Shown piece by piece: positions 4,842 to 41,417 of a stretch of DNA of 44,864 nt. The position numbers were made by a program, and so were the translations under genes. Positions within the stretch are counted from its first letter, which is position 1. Each line of letters begins with the position of its first letter. Under the pieces are notes generated by a model. It did no database searches. It saw only the letters and a program-made list of their open reading frames with translations, and was not told the origin of the DNA. The DNA is taken from positions 1 through 44,864 of the forward strand of contig DAITOE010000001.1 in assembly GCA_036834245.1 (NCBI GenBank), given 5' to 3'. Source of the DNA: Clostridia bacterium (lineage in GTDB: Bacteria; Bacillota; Clostridia; Christensenellales; Aristaeellaceae).

Positions 4842-6365
4842 ATGAAGAAAACCCTGTCCCTGCTCCTGGCCCTCATGATGATGCTGGGCCTCGTGTCCTT
4901 TGCATCCGCAGAGGCGCCCATCGAAATCTCCCTGTACTACTCCGACAACGCCACCCTGCCCTTCCGCCAGGACTGGCCCGTGATTGTGGCCCTGGAAAAG
5001 CAGTACAACGTCAAGCTCAACTTCGAGCCCATCCCCATGGGTGACTACGGCACCAAGGCCGGCCTGGGCCTGTCCACCGGGGAGAACACCCCGGATGTCA
5101 TGCTCTACCTGTCTACCGGCGGCACCTATGCCTCCTTCGCCTTAAACGGCGCCATTGTGCCCATCTCCGACTACGCAGACTGGACCCCCGAGTTCAACGC
5201 CCGGGTGGAGGAAATGGGCCTGCAGCAGGATGTGGACATGCTGAAGCTGGGGGACGGCAAGCGCTACTACATGCCCTCCCTCTTTGACAAGCCCTTCTAC
5301 GACGGCGGCCTCATCATGCGGGAGGACTACCTCATCGCAAAAGGCTTTGAGCCCCCCAAGACCTTTGATGATTTCTACAACATCCTGAAGGCCTACAAAG
5401 AAGACTTCCCGGACAGCTACCCCCTCACCTCCATTGTGGCCCTGCGTGTCGTCCAGCGGATGACCATGCCTTCCTTCGGCGTTTCCGTGGGCCGCAACTC
5501 CTCCACCGGCACCGGCACCCTGGGCTGGAACTACGAGAAGAAGGAATACTTCGCCGGCGCCATCTCCGATGAATACAAGGCCTACATCACCTACATGGCC
5601 AAACTCCACGCCGAAGGCCTCCTGGACCCGGAACTGGAGCAGGACAATGCCTCTACCGCCAAGAAGCTGGCCACCGGCGCTGCCATGGCCGTCTACGGCT
5701 ACTATGACCAGATCGGCGGCTGGGAGCAGGCCTCTGAAATCGAAGGCCTCAAGCTGCAGATGTACCCGCCCCTGGAAGGCCCCGGCGGCGCCCACCACCA
5801 GCCCAAGAACAAGACGGGCGGCGGGCTGCTCTTCCCCATCGGCGTCACCAAGCGCGCGGACTTTGAGCAGGTGGTCCGCAAGCTGGACGAGATCTTCTAT
5901 TCCAAGGATGCAGCCAAGCTCTGGTGCTTCGGCCCCGAGGGCGACAGCTACACCATGGACGGCGACAAGGTCGTCTACAACGACGACATCTTAAACAGCC
6001 AGGACGGCATCTACAAGTACATGCAAAACGCCTACGGCACCGGCTGCGCAGGATTGCAGAACATCTGGTACCTGGAGCAGGAGCTCACCAAGTACGACGA
6101 GAACTACGCCCGCATCAACGCTGAGGTGGCCGCCATGGACGATGCCATCCAGTATGCGCCGCCACCCCCCACCTTTGACGACGTCACCGCCGAGGATGCC
6201 GCCCTCCTGCAGACCGCCCTCCTGGACGCCTTCAACATCTGGGACGACGAGTTCCGCACCGGCAAGAAATCTGTGGAGGACGACTGGGACACCTACGTCC
6301 AGGAAATGAAGGACAAGGGCATCGAGCAGTTCCTGAAGTTCTACAACGACAACAAAAAGCTTTAA
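4842..6365 (+). CDS. Large (about 507 aa) extracellular solute-binding protein, LplA-like, of a carbohydrate ABC importer
   Basis: An AGGAGG RBS lies 7 nt upstream of the ATG at 4842; the track ORF starts at 4812. The signal peptide is MKKTLSLLLALMMMLGLVSFASA. Its size and composition are typical of LplA-type binding proteins, and it is followed by LplB/LplC-like permeases. Confidence 0.8.
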   Translation: MKKTLSLLLALMMMLGLVSFASAEAPIEISLYYSDNATLPFRQDWPVIVALEKQYNVKLNFEPIPMGDYGTKAGLGLSTGENTPDVMLYLSTGGTYASFALNGAIVPISDYADWTPEFNARVEEMGLQQDVDMLKLGDGKRYYMPSLFDKPFYDGGLIMREDYLIAKGFEPPKTFDDFYNILKAYKEDFPDSYPLTSIVALRVVQRMTMPSFGVSVGRNSSTGTGTLGWNYEKKEYFAGAISDEYKAYITYMAKLHAEGLLDPELEQDNASTAKKLATGAAMAVYGYYDQIGGWEQASEIEGLKLQMYPPLEGPGGAHHQPKNKTGGGLLFPIGVTKRADFEQVVRKLDEIFYSKDAAKLWCFGPEGDSYTMDGDKVVYNDDILNSQDGIYKYMQNAYGTGCAGLQNIWYLEQELTKYDENYARINAEVAAMDDAIQYAPPPPTFDDVTAEDAALLQTALLDAFNIWDDEFRTGKKSVEDDWDTYVQEMKDKGIEQFLKFYNDNKKL

Positions 6366-6445
6366 GACCGACGGGACGGGGGACCTTGGGGGCTTCGCCC
6401 CCAAACCCCCGCCCGGGGCCATTGGCCCCGGACCCCGGAATCTCA
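6366..6445 (+). repeat. Intergenic repeat family B, copy 1 (G-rich head + GGGGGCTTCGCCCCC hairpin + CCGGGGCCATTGGCCCCGG palindrome)
   Basis: It starts directly after the TAA at 6363-6365. About 75-80 percent of positions are identical by eye to the reverse complements of 30779-30873 and 39594-39686. Confidence 0.85.
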
Positions 6446-6593
6446 CTTGAACCAAAACATTCCATCCTGACCACCTGCTCCCTGCCCCGTCGGGGGCAGG
6501 GGGCAGCAGAGGGCCTGACAGACCAGATTTCAGGAGTGTCAACCGCCAAAGTGACCGCAGTCACTTGGGCGATCCATAAAGGAAGGTGCCACC

Positions 6594-7544
6594 ATGAAAA
6601 CGCCCCAGGGCAACCTGCGTCCCGGCAAATCAACCCGGGCCTGGCGCTATTTGCACAACAACTGGCAGCTCTACCTCATGATGCTGCTGCCCCTCATATA
6701 TTTCCTGTTGTTCAAATATGTGCCCATGTTTGGCAACATCCTGGCCTTCCGCCGTTTCAAGCCCTTGACCGGCCCCTTCGGGGTGCGCTGGGAAGGCCTG
6801 CGCTATTTCAACCAGTTTTTGTCCCAGCCGGATTTCTGGCGCGCCTTCTCCAACACCCTCACCCTGGCGGCCCTCAACCTCATCATCAACTTTCCCATGC
6901 CCATCATCTTCGCCATCCTCTTAAACGAGCTGCGCTCCCTGCGCTTCAAGAAGCTGGTGCAGACGGTCAGCTATATGCCCCGCTTTGTGTCCACCGTGGT
7001 GGTCATCTCCATCCTGGGGGAACTGCTGTCCCCCTCCTCTGGCGCCTTGAACCGGCTCATCCAGCAGCTCACCGGGGCCAAGCCCGTCTTTTATATGAAT
7101 GAAGCTGCCTATTTCCGGCCCCTGTACATCCTCACCGACATGTGGCAGTACACGGGCTGGTCCGCCATCATTTACCTGGCGGCCATCACCGGCATCAACA
7201 ACGACCTGTTTGAGGCCGCCCGCATCGACGGCGCCAACCGGACACAGCTGATCCGCTACGTCACCCTGCCCACCATCCTGCCCACCATCATGGTGATGTT
7301 CATTTTACGGGTGGGGCACCTGCTGTCCCTGGGCTTTGAAAAAATCCTGCTGATGTATACCCCGGCCAATTCCATGGTGTCGGACATCATCGACACCTAT
7401 GTCTACCGGATGTCCGTGGCGGCCACAGCCCCCCAGTACAGCTACGCCACCGCCATCGGCCTCTTCTCCGGCATCATCGGCCTGGTGCTGGTCACCTCCA
7501 GCAACCTGCTCTCCCGCCGCCTCACCGGCGAGGGCATCTATTAA
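6594..7544 (+). CDS. ABC transporter permease, LplB-like (MalF-type, carbohydrate uptake)
   Basis: 316 aa. It has the N-terminal WQLYLMMLLPLIYFLLFKYVPMFGNILAFRRF signature of LplB-type permeases and an EAA loop (FEAARIDGANRTQLIRYVTLP). Confidence 0.85.
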   Translation: MKTPQGNLRPGKSTRAWRYLHNNWQLYLMMLLPLIYFLLFKYVPMFGNILAFRRFKPLTGPFGVRWEGLRYFNQFLSQPDFWRAFSNTLTLAALNLIINFPMPIIFAILLNELRSLRFKKLVQTVSYMPRFVSTVVVISILGELLSPSSGALNRLIQQLTGAKPVFYMNEAAYFRPLYILTDMWQYTGWSAIIYLAAITGINNDLFEAARIDGANRTQLIRYVTLPTILPTIMVMFILRVGHLLSLGFEKILLMYTPANSMVSDIIDTYVYRMSVAATAPQYSYATAIGLFSGIIGLVLVTSSNLLSRRLTGEGIY

Positions 7545-8427: not shown

Positions 8428-8514
8428 GACGGGAACGGGGAACGGGGAACGGGGAAACGGGGAGACGCCTACCTTTTTTGAAAAAAAGGTAGGGCCAAAA
8501 AACTTTGATAGGGG
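8428..8514 (+). repeat. Intergenic repeat family A, copy 1 (GGGGAAC x3 G-rich head + CCTACCTTTTTTGAAAAAAAGGTAGG hairpin + CAAAAAACTTTGATAGGGG tail)
   Basis: It starts directly after the TAG at 8425-8427. The 26-nt hairpin at 8468-8493 is identical to the reverse complement of 37605-37630. The head and tail are also shared with the reverse complement of 41345-41417. Confidence 0.85.
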
Positions 8515-29882: not shown

Positions 29883-30698
29883 ATGGCTCTCATCAGCCTC
29901 AACTACCCTTCCGCCGCCCTGTATCAGAACACCGAGGTCACGGTGATCCTGCCGGACCCGGGGGAGGGGCTGCTGCGCCCGGGCAAAGGGGAACAGAGTC
30001 AGCCCCGCTACCCGGTGCTCTACCTGCTGCACGGCACCCACGGCGACCACACGGACTGGTGCCGTTACACCGCGATTGAGCGCTATGCCAGGGAGCGGGG
30101 GCTGGCGGTGGTGATGCCCGCCTGCGGCAACTCCTTCTACCAGGACATGGCCTCCGGCCCCCGGTACAAAAGCTTTGTGCTGGATGAATTGCCTGCCTAT
30201 TTGAGCGCCATCCTGCCCCTGTCCCGGAAACGGGAGGAAGTCTTCATCGCCGGCCTGTCCATGGGGGGCTACGGGGCCTTGCACCTGGCCCTGAGCCGGC
30301 CCCGGCAGTTCGCGGCGGCGGCCTCCCTCTCCGGCATTTTTTCCTTCGCGAAGCCCTACCGGGAGGTGAAGGACCAGCCGGATTTGCCCTGGCCCTTCCT
30401 GGCCATCCTGGGGGAAGGGGTCAACCCAACGGCCCTCCAGCGCAGCAACCGCAACGTGCTGGTGCAGGTGAAGCGCCTGATGGACCGGAAGGAGCCCCTG
30501 CCCCAGCTGTTCATCTCCGTGGGCACGGAGGACTTTACCCTGCCCTACAACCGGGAGGCCTGGCAGAAACTGCACGCCCTGGGGGCAGACTTCACCTATG
30601 AGGAGCACCCCGGTGCCCACACCTGGGATTACTGGGACACCCACATTCAGCGGGTGCTGGACTGGTTGCCGCTTCCAGAAAAAGAAGGTACGGAGTAG
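29883..30698 (+). CDS. Esterase-family alpha/beta hydrolase (putative-esterase / tributyrin-esterase-like, CE1-like)
   Basis: 271 aa with an AGGAGG RBS. It has YPVLYLLHGTHGDHTDW and the nucleophile elbow GLSMGGYGAL. Confidence 0.8.
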   Translation: MALISLNYPSAALYQNTEVTVILPDPGEGLLRPGKGEQSQPRYPVLYLLHGTHGDHTDWCRYTAIERYARERGLAVVMPACGNSFYQDMASGPRYKSFVLDELPAYLSAILPLSRKREEVFIAGLSMGGYGALHLALSRPRQFAAAASLSGIFSFAKPYREVKDQPDLPWPFLAILGEGVNPTALQRSNRNVLVQVKRLMDRKEPLPQLFISVGTEDFTLPYNREAWQKLHALGADFTYEEHPGAHTWDYWDTHIQRVLDWLPLPEKEGTE

Positions 30699-30724
30699 TG
30701 GGTCCAGGTGTAAATCCACAACAA

Positions 30725-30749
30725 AAAGGACGGCGCAGGGCCGTCCTTT
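30725..30749 (+). terminator. Hairpin AAAGGACGGC-gcagg-GCCGTCCTTT after the esterase gene
   Basis: A 10-bp perfect stem 27 nt after the stop. The T tract is part of the stem, so the tail is weak. Confidence 0.45.
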
Positions 30750-30778
30750 AATAATGATTACAATTCAAAATGATTCCC

Positions 30779-30873
30779 AGATAAACTACCGGGGTCCGGG
30801 GCCGATGGCCCCGGGCTGGGGGTTTGGGGGATGCAATCCCCCAAGGTCTTCGGACTTTCCCGTTCCTTCGTCC
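30779..30873 (-). repeat. Intergenic repeat family B, copy 2 (oriented with the aquaporin gene)
   Basis: The reverse complement reads TAG-GGACGAAGGAACGGGAAAG...CCTTGGGGGATTGCATCCCCCAAACCCCCAGCCCGGGGCCATCGGCCCCGGACCCCGGTAGTTTATCT. It begins at the stop codon at 30874-30876. Confidence 0.85.
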
Positions 30874-31560
30874 CTACGCCTTCAAGCCTTCCTTGTCATC
30901 CAGCACCTGCCAGACCAGGGCAGCCAGGGCGCCGCCCACCAGGGGGGCGAGGATGAAGACCCAGACGATGTTCAGGGCATCGGGCTGGCCGATGAGGGAG
31001 AGGATGAGGGCGGGGCCGAAGCTGCGGGCGGGGTTGACGCTGGTGCCGGTGAAATAGATGCCCAGGATGTGCACCAGGGTGAGGGTGAGGCCGATGACCA
31101 GGCCGGCTTTTCTGGCGGAGGCCTCCCGGGAGGTGACCCCCAGGATGGTGAGGACGAAGACGAAGGTGAGGATGACCTCGACGAGGAGGGATTTCATGAG
31201 GTCCCCCTGGTAGAGGGCGTTCTGGCCCAGGCCCATCCCGCCGCCGATGATGAGGTAGAGGATGCCGGCCCCGGCGATGGCGCCCAGGAACTGGGCGATG
31301 AGGTAGCCGATGAAGTCCCGGCCTGTCATGCGCCCGGTGAGGAGCATGCCGGTGGAGACGGCGGGGTTGATGTGGCAGCCGGAGATGTGGCCGATGGAGT
31401 AGGCCATGGCGACGATGACCAAGCCAAAGGCGAAGGCGGTCATCAGGTAGCTGACGGTGGCGGCGCCTTCCACCATCTTGGCGCCGGTGACGGCGGCGGT
31501 GCCGCAGGCGAAGAGCACCAGCACCAGGGTGCCGATGAATTCCGAGGCATATTTCTTCAT
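30874..31560 (-). CDS. aqpZ: MIP-family channel, aquaporin Z-like
   Basis: The start MKKYASEFIGTLVLV at 31560 follows AAGGAGG. It has two NPA boxes (HINPAVS, SVNPARS). The track ORF upstream extension is not coding. Confidence 0.85.
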   Translation of the reverse strand: MKKYASEFIGTLVLVLFACGTAAVTGAKMVEGAATVSYLMTAFAFGLVIVAMAYSIGHISGCHINPAVSTGMLLTGRMTGRDFIGYLIAQFLGAIAGAGILYLIIGGGMGLGQNALYQGDLMKSLLVEVILTFVFVLTILGVTSREASARKAGLVIGLTLTLVHILGIYFTGTSVNPARSFGPALILSLIGQPDALNIVWVFILAPLVGGALAALVWQVLDDKEGLKA

Positions 31561-31682
31561 TCCGGGTTCCTCCTTATCGGGGTTTGGTATACCAGGTATG
31601 GGTGTCGCCCATATCATACCACCGCCGCCATGGTTTCCACCAGCCGGATTGACGGGATTTGCCTGTTTCATCGCCAATTTTC

Positions 31683-31711
31683 TTGAATAAAGGCCCTTTT
31701 GGTGGTATACT
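31683..31711 (+). promoter_or_regulatory. Candidate promoter for the BMP-type ABC operon (TTGAAT-17 nt-TATACT)
   Basis: Hexamers with an exact 17-nt spacer. It is followed by a small 5' UTR hairpin (AGAAAC-tgt-GTTTCT) and the AGGAGG RBS. Confidence 0.45.
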
Positions 31712-37590: not shown

Positions 37591-37654
37591 TAAAGTTTTT
37601 TGGTCCTACCTTTTTTTCAAAAAAGGTAGGCGTTCTTTAATCCCGTCTACCGTC
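37591..37654 (-). repeat. Intergenic repeat family A, copy 2 (oriented with the P-type ATPase gene)
   Basis: The reverse complement reads TAG-GACGGTAGACGGGATTAAAGAACG-CCTACCTTTTTTGAAAAAAAGGTAGG-ACCAAAAAACTTTAG. The hairpin is at 37605-37630. It lies between convergent genes. Confidence 0.85.
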
Positions 37655-39526
37655 CTACACCCCGGGCAGGGCGCAGGCCTGGCAGCCGGGGGGCACCCGG
37701 AGGGCGCGCATGGCATTGAGGATGGCCAGGACGGCGACCCCGACGTCGGCAAAGACGGCCATCCAGAGGGTGGACAGACCCAGGGTGGAGAGGATGAGGA
37801 CCAGGACCTTGACGCCGATGGCGAAGGCGGCGTTTTGCTTGGCGATCCGGAGGGTCTTGCGGGAGATGGTGAGGGCGGCGGCCATTTTGCAGGGGTCGTC
37901 ATTCATGATGACGATGTCCGCGGCCTCGATGGCGGCGTCGGAGCCCAGGGCGCCCATGGCAAAGCCCACATCGGCCCGGGCCAGGACGGGGGCGTCGTTG
38001 ACGCCGTCCCCGGCGAAAACCAGCTTGCCCTTTCTGCCGGGGGCCTCCAGCAGCTCTTCTACTTTGAGCACCTTGTCCTGGGGCAGCAGGCCGGTGTGGA
38101 CCACGTCGATGTCCAATTCAGCGGCCACCTGGCCAGCGCTTCTGGCATTGTCCCCGGTGAGCATCACCAACTGGCGGATGCCCTGCTGCTTGAGGCGGGC
38201 CAGGGCCTCCCTGGCGCAGGGCTTCACGGTGTCCTCCACGGTGATAAAGCCGATGTAGGCGCCGTCACGGGCTACATGGCTGACGGTGCCGCTGTGGTCT
38301 GATTCCGGCAGGGGGATGCCGTGGGCGGCCATGAGGCGGGGGTTGCCCAGCAGCACGGTGTGCCCGTTGACGCGGGCTTTGACGCCGCCGCCGGGCATCT
38401 CTTCCACATCGGTTACCAGGCTGGCGTCCAGCTCCCGGCCGTGGGCGGCCCTGATGGCGGCGCCGATGGGGTGGAGGGAGTGGATCTCCGCGTGGGCGGC
38501 CAGGCGCAGCAGCTCGGCCTCGGTGACGCCTAGGGGCTGAAGGTCGGTCACGGTGAAGCTGCCCCGGGTGAGGGTGCCGGTTTTGTCAAAGACAAAGGTG
38601 TCCGCCTGGGCCAGGGCCTCCAGGTAGTTGGAGCCCTTCACCAGGATGCCGGCCCGGGAGGCGCCGCCGATGCCGCCGAAAAAGGCCAGGGGGATGGAGA
38701 TCACCAGGGCACAGGGGCAGGACACCACCAGGAAGTTGAGGGCCCGGTACACCCAGTCGGACAGCTGGGCGCCGGGGATGAAGAGGGGCGGGACAAAGGC
38801 CAGCAGCAGGGCCAGGATCACCACCACCGGGGTGTAAACGGCGGAAAACCGGGTGATGAAGGCTTCCTGGCGGGATTTTTTGTCGGTGGCGTTTTCCACC
38901 ATCTCCAGGATGCGGCTGACGGTGGACTGGTGGAAGGGCTTGGTAACCTGCACGGTGAGGACCCCGGTGAGGTTGACGCAGCCGGAGAGGACCTCATCCC
39001 CGGTGTTCACCTCCCGGGGCAGGGACTCCCCGGTGAGGGCGGCGGTGTCCAGCTGGCTGGTGCCGGAGACGACGATGCCGTCCAGGGGCAGGCGCTCCCC
39101 GGGGCGCAGCAGGATGCGGCTGCCAACGGGCACTTCTTCGGGGTCCACCAACAGGGTGTCCCCGGCTTCGGTGAGCAGGTTCGCGCTGTCAGGCCGCAGG
39201 TCCATGGCGCCGGCGATGGAACGGCGGGACTTGTCCAGGGCGTGGTGCTCAAACATCTCCCCGGTCTGGAAAAAGACCATCACGGCCACGGCCTCGGCGT
39301 ATTCCCCGATGACGATGGCACCGATGGTGGCCAGGGACATGAGGAAGTTCTCGTCAAAGACCTGGCCCCGGAGGATGCCCTGGAGGGCGCCCCACAGGAC
39401 GTCATAGCCGGCGATGAAGTAACTGAGGAGGAACAGGGGGATGGCCACGGCCGAGCTGGCGCGGAACAACAGCCCTGCAATCAGTAAAAGCAGGGCTGCG
39501 GGGATGCGGTAGATTCGTTTTGTCAT
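37655..39526 (-). CDS. Heavy-metal translocating P1B-type ATPase (Cd/Zn/Co-type, CadA-like) lacking an N-terminal metal-binding domain
   Basis: 623 aa. It has the CPC motif (VSCPCALVISIP), DKTGTLT, MLTGDN and GDGVNDAPVLA. Confidence 0.9.
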   Translation of the reverse strand: MTKRIYRIPAALLLLIAGLLFRASSAVAIPLFLLSYFIAGYDVLWGALQGILRGQVFDENFLMSLATIGAIVIGEYAEAVAVMVFFQTGEMFEHHALDKSRRSIAGAMDLRPDSANLLTEAGDTLLVDPEEVPVGSRILLRPGERLPLDGIVVSGTSQLDTAALTGESLPREVNTGDEVLSGCVNLTGVLTVQVTKPFHQSTVSRILEMVENATDKKSRQEAFITRFSAVYTPVVVILALLLAFVPPLFIPGAQLSDWVYRALNFLVVSCPCALVISIPLAFFGGIGGASRAGILVKGSNYLEALAQADTFVFDKTGTLTRGSFTVTDLQPLGVTEAELLRLAAHAEIHSLHPIGAAIRAAHGRELDASLVTDVEEMPGGGVKARVNGHTVLLGNPRLMAAHGIPLPESDHSGTVSHVARDGAYIGFITVEDTVKPCAREALARLKQQGIRQLVMLTGDNARSAGQVAAELDIDVVHTGLLPQDKVLKVEELLEAPGRKGKLVFAGDGVNDAPVLARADVGFAMGALGSDAAIEAADIVIMNDDPCKMAAALTISRKTLRIAKQNAAFAIGVKVLVLILSTLGLSTLWMAVFADVGVAVLAILNAMRALRVPPGCQACALPGV

Positions 39527-39593
39527 GTCGGTACTTTCTTAATCATCACGAGTCATTCTGCAAGCATGCAATGCACTCTGTGGCTTTGCACAA

Positions 39594-39686
39594 AGATAAA
39601 TATTGGGGTCCGGGGCCAATGGCCCCGGGCTGGGGGCCAGGGGGATGCAGTCCCCCTGCGTACCCTTTGGTCTTTCCTCCCCGTCC
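39594..39686 (-). repeat. Intergenic repeat family B, copy 3 (between the HMA gene and the ATPase gene)
   Basis: The reverse complement reads TAG-GGACGGGGAGGAAAGACC...CAGGGGGACTGCATCCCCCTGGCCCCCAGCCCGGGGCCATTGGCCCCGGACCCCAATATTTATCT. It begins at the stop codon at 39687-39689. Confidence 0.85.
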
Positions 39687-39914
39687 CTATCTGGCGGTCA
39701 CCACGAGGCGGGCCTGGGGCTCGATGGTTTTGATGATGTCGCCGGCCTGTTTGAGGATGCTGTCCACCTGGGCGTCATCGGCTTCCAGGGTGAGGCGCTG
39801 GGTTAAGAAATTGACCCGGGCGCTGCTGACGCCGCGCAGGGCGCAGATTTTCCGTTCCATCTTGGCGGCGCAGCTGGCGCAGCCCAGGTTCTTGATCTTG
39901 TAGGCACAGGTCAT
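39687..39914 (-). CDS. Heavy-metal-associated (HMA) domain protein, CopZ/CadA-N-terminus-like
   Basis: It contains MTCAYKIKNLGCASCAAKMERKICALRGVSSARVNFLTQRLTLEADD with the GCxxC metal-binding motif. The ATG at 39914 is 8 nt after AGGAGG. An alternative ATG is at 39920. Confidence 0.8.
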   Translation of the reverse strand: MTCAYKIKNLGCASCAAKMERKICALRGVSSARVNFLTQRLTLEADDAQVDSILKQAGDIIKTIEPQARLVVTAR

Positions 39915-39949: not shown

Positions 39950-40096
39950 CCATCGCCAGTATACTTGAACACCCGCTCAATTGTCAACAGGAAACCAGGT
40001 GGTTTTTCCGGCGCTTTACAGGGCCGTAAAAAACGTTTAAGATTGTGTCAGCGAGCATGCATATCCGGGTGTGAACCGGGAGAAAGGAAGAGGGCT

Positions 40097-41344: not shown

Positions 41345-41417
41345 CCTATTAAAGTTTTTTGCGCACTTTTTTTCAAAAAAGTGCCGTTTTCTCCGTTCCC
41401 ATCCCCGTTTTCCGTCC
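41345..41417 (-). repeat. Intergenic repeat family A, copy 3 (oriented with the ArsR-family gene)
   Basis: The reverse complement reads TAA-GGACGGAAAACGGGGATGGGAACGGAGAAAACG-GCACTTTTTTGAAAAAAAGTGC-GCAAAAAACTTTAATAGGGCTG. The T6-G-A7 core is conserved, and the stem base is changed from CCTACC/GGTAGG to GCAC/GTGC (compensatory). Confidence 0.8.

Follow-up and report, generated by a model that had tools for sequence, protein, structure and literature searches.

The repetitive extragenic palindromes (REPs) and bacterial interspersed mosaic elements (BIMEs) of Enterobacteria and Pseudomonas, which are associated with RAYTs (REP-associated tyrosine transposases), are short GC-rich palindromes that number tens to hundreds outside genes and come in variants particular to a species. 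They lie mostly at the 3′ ends of genes or between the cistrons of operons, the gap between the binding-protein cistron malE and the permease cistron malF being the classic placement, and their loops host other mobile DNA, as IS1397 does in the palindromic units of E. coli. These features recur in family B, a double-hairpin repeat found in three copies in a 44,864-nt stretch of DNA (the window) from a Clostridia bacterium of an anaerobic digester, assembly GCA_036834245.1. The window is contig C1 of a metagenome-assembled genome (MAG), here G000, which comprises 1.95 Mb in 306 contigs at 61% GC and is 83.6% complete; gene calls were made anew, giving a coding density of 91%.

Family B differs from REPs and BIMEs in that it has no conserved GTAG head, no RAYT/Y1 gene was detected with it, and its hairpins stand in direct rather than inverted order with ACCCC after each. 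It also carries a variable, purine-rich repeat head fused to a stop codon, shows a strict orientation bias, and belongs to a Gram-positive lineage within the Clostridia. Bacterial MITEs (transposable elements of the miniature inverted-repeat type; Correia/NEMIS, RUP, ERIC and Nezha) are likewise small, non-coding and co-transcribed with their neighbours, with burst-like copy differences between close species and with nested insertions; unlike them, family B has no clear terminal inverted repeats, no demonstrable target-site duplication and no parent insertion sequence (IS) that could be found.

Two further systems share its position. The attC sites of integrons are imperfect structured palindromes at or overlapping the stop of the upstream open reading frame (ORF), with a variable centre and conserved flanks, but family B has no R″ or R′ core, its hosts are not cassettes, and native terminators lie downstream of it. 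Intrinsic and hairpin-cluster terminators are GC-rich hairpins tens of nucleotides past the stop, in sense orientation and followed by T-rich sequence, whereas the T-rich tail of family B is separated from its stem by ACCCCGGAA and some copies are internal to operons.

Sequence plan and structure

A first-pass annotation had reported three copies that align over their whole length, and all three were recovered, alignable end to end, as follows.

6366–6448 (+): copy B1, score 83 bits, with a TAA stop (6363–6365) immediately 5′
6366–6404 (+): B1 5′ half; purine-rich head 6366–6387, hairpin 1 6388–6402 with outer pairs reaching 6386–6404, then spacer AAACCCCCGC
6413–6448 (+): B1 3′ half; hairpin 2 6413–6431, ACCCC 6432–6436, then tail GGAATCTCACTT, to about 6448
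30779–30873 (−): copy B2, score 79 bits, with the aquaporin TAG stop (30876–30874) directly 5′
30873–30779 (−): B2 parts; head 30873–30843, hairpin 1 30842–30826, hairpin 2 30814–30796, ACCCC 30795–30791, tail 30790–30779
39594–39686 (−): copy B3, score 74 bits, with the TAG stop of an HMA gene (39689–39687) directly 5′
39686–39594 (−): B3 parts; head 39686–39657, hairpin 1 39656–39640, hairpin 2 39628–39610, ACCCC 39609–39605, tail 39604–39594

B1 follows a gene for an extracellular solute-binding protein (Pfam SBP_bac_8), B2 one for a MIP aquaporin and B3 one for an HMA-domain protein, in agreement with the earlier naming of lplA-like, aqpZ and HMA hosts, provided that "LplA-like" refers to the binding protein of B. 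subtilis. From 5′ to 3′, the order of parts is stop codon, purine-rich head, hairpin 1, spacer, hairpin 2, ACCCC and tail. The head (G 45%, A 26%, T 12%) abounds in Shine-Dalgarno-like sequences and contains neither start nor stop codons. Hairpin 1 has a G5/C5 stem with one or two inner and two or three outer pairs, closed by the loop T-K-C; the spacer reads R-R-ACCCCC-N-G-C; hairpin 2 is CCGGGG-NN-loop-NN-CCCCGG, with 8 bp and the loop W-T-C; and the tail is GGAATYTNTYT. The first-pass description of hairpin 1 as GGGGG-N5/6-CCCCC with a freely varying loop must therefore be amended, since the loop is a conserved triloop and the outer pairs of the stem covary.

Both hairpins are maintained by compensatory change. 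Among 107 copies aligned to a covariance model, standard pairs filled 95.6% of cells against 80.5% in shuffles, and two-sided changes were found in 258 cells against 81, with 10 of 15 pairs varying on both sides; none of 500 shuffles matched any observed covariation value. The covariation score of 0.408 fell to 0.081 or less after the 3′ partner was slid. At columns 17/24 part of the apparent covariation comes from hairpin 1 having 15-nt and 17-nt forms that are shifted in register; the genuinely covarying columns are 19/23, 43/59, 44/58, 48/54 and 49/53. Near-invariant positions comprise the loop letters of the triloops, the unpaired CCCC (100–103 of 107 copies) and the unpaired G40 and A61.

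Watson–Crick pairs make up 97% of helix cells. The counts of G-U (12) and A-C (23) cells among 1490 point to no RNA strand, and these non-Watson–Crick cells are too few for the strand of function to be read from wobble pairs. Constraint on the palindromes seems to act on the DNA itself or on both strands. Where the head is G-rich, the predicted fold is a Y-shape of −46 to −52 kcal/mol, in which a G-run of the head would pair with the C-run of the spacer, extending hairpin 1, and a second G-run of the head with the terminal ACCCC. Two other accounts were rejected: a canonical G-quadruplex motif occurs in only 9 of 46 heads and so does not explain the head in general, and a coding or read-through role fails because indels place the core in differing frames among copies, no reading frame being conserved.

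Position and orientation at gene ends

The genome contains 41 copies at E<1e-8 when searched with an nhmmer profile built from exact-core matches, and 48 according to the covariance model R1. Of the 41, 33 follow a co-oriented ORF whose end lies 6–80 nt (median 24) before hairpin 1, and in about 29 of these 33 (~88%) the head begins at the base after the stop, which bears out genome-wide the earlier proposal that copies are oriented with the upstream gene and start at its stop codon. The direction of a copy matches the adjacent gene rather than the surroundings: the fraction of co-oriented genes within 6 kb on each side averages 0.54, and the block around the aquaporin copy is 94% oppositely oriented. 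Replication strand was considered as the cause of orientation and rejected, since copies match the adjacent gene even where the neighbourhood runs the other way.

Copies occupy the start of the 3′ untranslated region (UTR) or of the intercistronic region in sense orientation, with the stop codon on one side and the native terminator or next cistron on the other, and where an operon is read through, the element is transcribed within that region. Two of the window copies are inside operons: B1 separates a binding-protein gene from the permease genes that follow (first permease start at 6594), and B3 is wedged between the stop of the HMA gene, a metal chaperone, and a P-type ATPase gene (ATG at 39526). 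Not every head meets a stop codon. Two copies begin just past the T-tract of a canonical terminator, and in three family copies and a single-hairpin variant on contig C4 the head lies against the ribosome-binding site (RBS) of a divergent gene. The head side always meets a functional boundary, usually the stop codon, whose final base or bases the head now supplies, while the tail side has a spacer of 18–290 nt. In other congeneric species, heads are short and 25–55 nt of unrelated spacer lie between stop and element. In E. coli, a subset of REPs lies 1–20 nt from stop codons (PMC12306157), and the passage of that article which cites Liang et al. 2015 reports that REPs less than 15 nt from the stop influence translation.

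Insertion and its effect on stop codons

Comparison across species shows family B as inserted, heritable and lineage-specific DNA, because orthologous loci in sister species are empty, copy number within the genus ranges from 0 to 68, variants are species-specific and a 118-nt repeat is nested within some copies. At the aquaporin locus, the element is missing in 10 sister species; where their tails align, the C-termini read ..ALKA followed by TAA in 8 and TGA in 2, and that of G000 reads ..GLKA followed by TAG. Five further loci give the same picture of a conserved C-terminus with orthologue stops that are mostly TAA and a TAG in G000, among them ..GIIR TAG against ..GIIQ/R TAA, ..ARAV TAG against ..PKAV TAA/TGA, ..MESR TAG against ..QESK/R TAA, and ..EPLF TAG against ..PLF/PLY (TAA 7, TGA 3, TAG 1).

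These C-terminal comparisons show the stop codon altered by the element and the protein left as it was, and many stops have apparently been changed from TAA to TAG. Stops of the genome overall are TGA 838, TAA 626 and TAG 183 (TAG 11% of 1647); beside family B they are TAG 20, TAA 9 and TGA 4 (n=33; Fisher p = 5e-12). Since the head starts with purines, T or TA plus the head would read TAA, TAG or TGA, and only TGG would abolish the stop; hence the excess of TAG and the deficit of TGA. In 17 of 31 copies a G precedes the stop, against a background of 24%. The exact junction varies, falling after the last sense codon, after T, after TA or after the full stop: at C5, the native TGA is lost and the head provides GGG TAG, adding one residue, and at C36 the stop is formed as T + GACGGG.

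Two loci carry the same insertion in the congeneric genome G013, which argues that it is heritable and old; the heads have diverged, and at one of the two G013 has TAA and G000 has TAG. In sister species, just 2–4 nt separate the HMA stop from the ATPase ATG (TAG ACAT ATG), and in G000 the gap is filled by B3 and about 65 nt more. The idea that B3 split a fused HMA-ATPase gene was discarded, as element-free relatives already have two ORFs separated by those 2–4 nt.

Spread across the genus and modular build

R1 matches were found in 17 of 23 other congeneric species, with 0–68 copies per species; two congeneric genomes that are 98% complete have none, and a search of 17 other genera of the order with R1 gave nothing convincing. 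The dominant variant differs by species: G000 combines the G5 hairpin 1 with several types of hairpin 2, in G001, G008 and G017 a G4 hairpin 1 goes together with hairpin 2 of the AGTTCCT type, and further congeners have the outer stem CAAGGG..CCCTTG. With its 41–48 copies and covariation above both shuffle and slide controls, family B agrees with the first-pass view of a dispersed REP/MITE-like module that has arisen by common descent and not by convergence.

Part of that view needs revision. Family B is a real multi-copy repeat but is not self-contained, for at least 46 genes carry the same head, and the hairpin modules behind it differ; it is a two-hairpin subfamily within a modular family of small non-coding repeats. 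These genes came from a scan of all stops in G000 for a T-poor head of GGACGG type at the stop, and their stops are TAG 30, TAA 10 and TGA 6. By automatic tags, 14 of the 46 carry the double hairpin and 7 a T6-G-A7 hairpin (family A), and the rest have other palindromes, e.g. TTCTTTTTCTTAGGAAAGAAAAAGAA, GAAACCTTTTCTGAAGAAAAGGTTTC and long hairpins on a G5 stem with AGACCCCC after them, with tails that combine AAAAACTTT and GGAATCT. The common plan is a purine-rich, T-poor head built from a varying number of GGGRACG-like units; between one and four hairpins with perfect pairing and a single-stranded R-R-ACCCC behind each; and a short T-rich tail, GGAATYTNTYT or, in other subfamilies, AAAAACTTT. 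Some members have a single hairpin, and others form arrays of three or four.

At six places in G000, all outside the window, a 118-nt structured repeat (starting CCCGCAAGCTCAATCGTCGCGGGCC) interrupts a hairpin loop, either that of hairpin 2 or that of hairpin 1:

C21:5987-6104, C92:499-616, C126:1-81, C41:3591-3706, C102:6630-6745 and C223:2774-2815: 118-nt nested repeat

In the C21 element it splits hairpin 2, and the orthologous G013 copy is uninterrupted. The 118-nt repeat also occurs in other genera of the host's taxonomic family (e.g. 14 copies in G055), and a search of Rfam in E-value mode gave no credible match to it.

Known families and mobilising enzymes

As a multi-copy extragenic palindrome with compensatory changes (41–48 copies), family B agrees with the REP definition. 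The GT[AG]G tetranucleotide 5′ of the palindrome is not conserved, the 5′ flank of the hairpin being ..ACGCY or ..CAGC, and GTAG is formed together with the stop in only about half of the copies. The fixed 4–5-nt left target of IS200/IS605 is absent, the left flank being a stop codon, an RBS or a T-tract. Neither attC core site, RYYYAAC (R″) or GTTRRRY (R′), is present in the column consensus of 107 copies, and the host genes are chromosomal housekeeping genes of conserved synteny. Rfam gave no match at gathering threshold for the window and chance-level matches only, in E-value mode, for the element loci. The circumstances that the first-pass annotation had named as speaking against its proposal were an absence of orientation or stop-codon bias, an absence of covariation, and identity with an IS end or attC; each was looked at and none holds, for the IS end as far as one could be found.

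The Y1/RAYT domain (PF01797) was found neither in G000 (83.6% complete) nor in four copy-rich genomes, G001, G007, G008 and G011, a negative that MAG incompleteness leaves in some doubt; the domain is present in G010, which has no copies. No TnpB domain (PF07282) occurs in 24 genomes of the genus, IS110 (PF01548), searched across the genus, shows no association with copy number, and two zero-copy, well-assembled genomes are the IS-rich ones. There is an imperfect subterminal 9-nt match between a head unit and a tail unit (GGGGACGG / CCGGACCCC), and TA or TAA is enriched 11–12 nt past ACCCC (14 of 38 copies), with no empty site for comparison.

The preferred reading

The pattern is real, statistically solid and only partly explained, and the abutment on stop codons is its unusual feature. 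Family B is best read as a REP/MITE-like, modular, mobile 3′-UTR element, possibly serving as a stabiliser of mRNA 3′ ends, a reading to which we give an even chance. It would have spread at the DNA level like a REP or MITE, with the hairpins and ACCCC acting as the recognition structure for an enzyme; the almost purely Watson–Crick compensation and the conserved triloops are cited toward this. In the transcript, the very stable three-way or double-hairpin fold would most likely block 3′-to-5′ exonucleases, and such a barrier would raise the level of the upstream cistron, a pattern that B1 and B3 fit, with binding protein before permeases and metal chaperone before ATPase as in the malE–malF placement of REPs.

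Several results weigh against this reading. No transposase or recombinase partner was found, since Y1/RAYT, IS110 and TnpB all fail to track copy number; there are no clear terminal inverted repeats (5′ GGGACGG.. and 3′ ..GGAATYTNTYT are non-complementary), and no target-site duplication is demonstrable. Ten public contigs with an identical aquaporin all have an identical element, giving no filled/empty polymorphism, and a metagenome scan for a closer relative with an empty site yielded none above 83% protein identity. No within-species filled/empty pair having been seen, mobility is read from between-species comparison only. The stabiliser role is plausible by analogy with the malE–malF REPs, and that of a protein-binding palindrome, another option of the first-pass annotation, is likewise plausible. 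Finally, the abutment cannot be produced by random 3′-UTR insertion of a selfish element.

That abutment may reflect either a choice of target or one-sided encroachment of the head, by deletion or expansion, up to the point where selection to keep an in-frame stop halted it. Targeted integration is favoured by the copy in a 2–4-nt gap and by the bias to TAA hosts. In favour of encroachment are the varying junctions, the copies whose heads lie against an RBS or terminator, and the short-headed congeners with their 25–55-nt spacer.

A bolder description is possible, if doubtful: the repeats may be previously undescribed "post-stop-codon elements", consisting of a head, an interchangeable hairpin module and a tail, that integrate at or grow into the stops of expressed genes in sense orientation and so rewrite them, in a process coupled to the direction of transcription or translation and lying outside known transposase families, with the similarly built double-hairpin repeats of Actinobacteria and Alphaproteobacteria as relatives within a widespread, overlooked type of element. 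If so, they would account for about one-sixth of the TAG stops of the genome (30/183). On the conservative reading, family B is a clear Gram-positive counterpart of REP-type repeats with unusually clean covariation and a modular build. It merits attention that a non-coding repeat sets stop identity in dozens of genes, skewing stop usage of the genome, and that one side of the element always lies at a functional boundary with no known mobilising enzyme found; this may reveal a new way in which small repeats spread or are shaped by selection at gene ends. Practical uses lie in the annotation of 3′ UTRs in MAGs, the avoidance of false ORF calls, and a natural set of very stable 3′ structures.

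Alternative explanations

Rather than a REP/MITE-like repeat whose abutment may have either origin, family B could be a site-specific mobile element that truly targets stops in sense orientation, perhaps in a manner linked to transcription or translation, its first purine or purines completing the stop. We consider this unlikely. The zero spacer at about 29 of 33 junctions, the copy within the 2–4-nt gap of coupled genes, the mostly TAA stops of orthologues, the G before the stop (17 of 31 against 24%) and an orientation that tracks the adjacent gene rather than the neighbourhood all agree with it, as does the depletion of TGA hosts (6/46 against 51% genome-wide), which is expected if T or TA plus a purine must stay a stop. 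The junction position is not fixed, however (GGG TAG in C5, after T in C36, and elsewhere behind TA or the complete stop), an RBS or terminator T-tract takes the place of the stop in some copies, other congeners have 25–55 nt of unrelated spacer, and no enzyme was found in G000. It counts further against such targeting that we know of no DNA enzyme that reads reading frames.

Termination is the next function to be weighed, and the first-pass annotation had listed it as one of its options. As a dedicated module, family B would be either an unconventional intrinsic terminator (hairpin 2 with an GGAAUUUAUCU tail) or a compact Rho-loading site, its two single-stranded ACCCC(C) tracts spaced by hairpins like lambda tR1 rutA-boxB-rutB. 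Gene-end placement in sense orientation, the near-invariant unpaired C-rich segments (CCCC in 100–103 of 107) and a genome that encodes Rho are consistent with this, and at three loci the canonical terminator of the sister species is not evident in G000, the element being in its place. A search for a hairpin plus T-tract nevertheless found canonical terminators as often after element-bearing genes as after others: 15/19 against 160/225 for convergent genes, and 5/12 against 175/387 for tandem genes. Because canonical terminators persist downstream at this background rate, family B is not the main terminator. The stem of hairpin 2 is followed by ACCCCGGAAT and not by a U-tract within 0–2 nt, as an intrinsic terminator would have it; the U-rich tail starts 10 nt past the stem. 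A terminator scan leaves the element uncalled and calls instead, at 30749-30725, the following feature, which has a similar counterpart after the stop of element-free aquaporin orthologues.

30725–30749 (−): native intrinsic terminator of the aquaporin gene, AAAGGACGGCC..GCCGTCCTTT with a T-tract, about 30 nt 3′ of B2

Two copies lying after a canonical terminator, the operon-internal B1 and B3 upstream of genes that need expression, and a G-rich head unfavourable to Rho speak against termination too, and we rate this module as quite improbable.

A cis-acting RNA signal that tunes translation termination, ribosome release or re-initiation, or that binds a specific protein, is likewise improbable, and slightly more so. 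The G- and A-rich, T-poor head (45%, 26% and 12%) that starts at the stop, the position of hairpin 1 at a median of 24 nt from it, just outside the footprint of a terminating ribosome, and the conserved triloops and unpaired G40 and A61 would suit such a signal, as would the effect on translation of stop-proximal E. coli REPs reported in the part of PMC12306157 that cites Liang et al. 2015. Yet the host genes are functionally unrelated, congeners range from 0 to 68 copies, orthologous genes do without the element, the sense strand has no G-U enrichment, and several copies lie antisense beside divergent genes or behind terminators.

That family B is simply a known structure, namely an integron attC, an IS200/IS605-type end (PATE) or a RAYT-mobilised REP, is very improbable: attC sites likewise begin at the stop codons of cassettes, strand-specific hairpins that lack terminal inverted repeats also make up IS200/IS605 ends and REPs, and about half of the copies have a G before TAG in a GTAG-like motif, but the consensus has neither RYYYAAC nor GTTRRRY, the hosts are housekeeping genes in conserved synteny, and no Y1 was found in G000 or four other copy-rich genomes, there is no TnpB genus-wide and no Rfam match.

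Likeness to repeats in other phyla

An exact-pattern scan of species-representative genomes also returned Lentzea, Pseudonocardia, Amycolatopsis, Nocardia, Kutzneria, Rhodovulum and others, and in five such genomes the clostridial model found 4–17 copies or more each. The double hairpins of Actinobacteria and Rhodovulum are multi-copy and share GGGGG-N-CCCCC, A-N-ACCCC(C), CCGGGG-N7-CCCCGG and ACCCC(C)GG with family B; they differ in usually following a terminator-like hairpin and T-rich stretch rather than a stop, and in having no GGGACG head. Around the cross-phylum matches, no recurrent neighbour protein family was seen beyond local synteny. Because most of the shared letters were fixed by the search pattern itself, these double hairpins are offered as a lead and not as evidence of homology. 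Multi-copy double-hairpin repeats of like grammar at loci L048-L100 (e.g. L049, L070, L071, L077, L088 and L058) belong to Pseudonocardiaceae, Nocardia, Streptomyces, Rhodovulum, Planctomycetota and Limnocylindria, and L070 has three tandem units beside tRNA genes. In a collection of viral contigs, a relaxed double-hairpin pattern gave a single match, L256:11176-11222 (IMG/VR UViG_2816332357_000005).

Further features of the window and minor observations

Three members or variants of family A lie in the window, together with the stretch that follows B3.

8428–8514 (+): family A member; post-stop head TAG|GACGGGAACGGGGAACGGGG..GACGCC, differing hairpin TACCTTTTTTGAAAAAAAGGTA, tail CCAAAAAACTTT
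37591–37654 (−): family A member after an ATPase TAG stop; head GACGGTAGACGGG..
41345–41417 (−): family A variant after a TAA stop; hairpin GCACTTTTTTGAAAAAAAGTGC
39527–39593 (−): extra stretch of about 65 nt from the B3 tail to the ATPase start codon, missing in sister species

Read antisense, a family A hairpin is terminator-like by scan (37605-37630, +). The stretch at 39527-39593 must now provide the RBS of the ATPase gene and perhaps also a promoter. A strong sigma-70-like promoter match lies 5′ of the HMA gene at 39958-39987 (−), with TTGACA, 18 nt and TATACT (11/12).

The pseudo-peptide GPGPMAPGWG, which had been ascribed to the element, does derive from it, since the sequence gives it in frame 3 on the strand antisense to hairpin 2 and the spacer. 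Spurious long ORFs cross the elements at 6386-7102 (+), 5991-6542 (−), 30598-31686 (+) and 39520-39903 (+), because head and hairpins are nearly free of stops on both strands, and such frames give rise to false gene calls in this lineage.

A paralogous pair of 189-aa genes, both ending ..ISQGQ, has a family B copy after each TAG (C174:3218-3784 and C133:4395-4961), so that either the gene was duplicated along with the element or there were two insertions. Tandem arrays occur at L091:1183-1548 in a Clostridia MAG (three full copies, spacing 158 nt) and at C70:2746-2960 in G000 (three single-hairpin copies with an intervening unit of about 135 nt that has its own terminator-like hairpin). One copy with its flanks (about 125 nt) is letter-identical in the public record Clostridiales bacterium isolate AS06rmzACSIP_86, and the remaining public contigs derive from metagenomes of digesters, bioreactors and fermentations.

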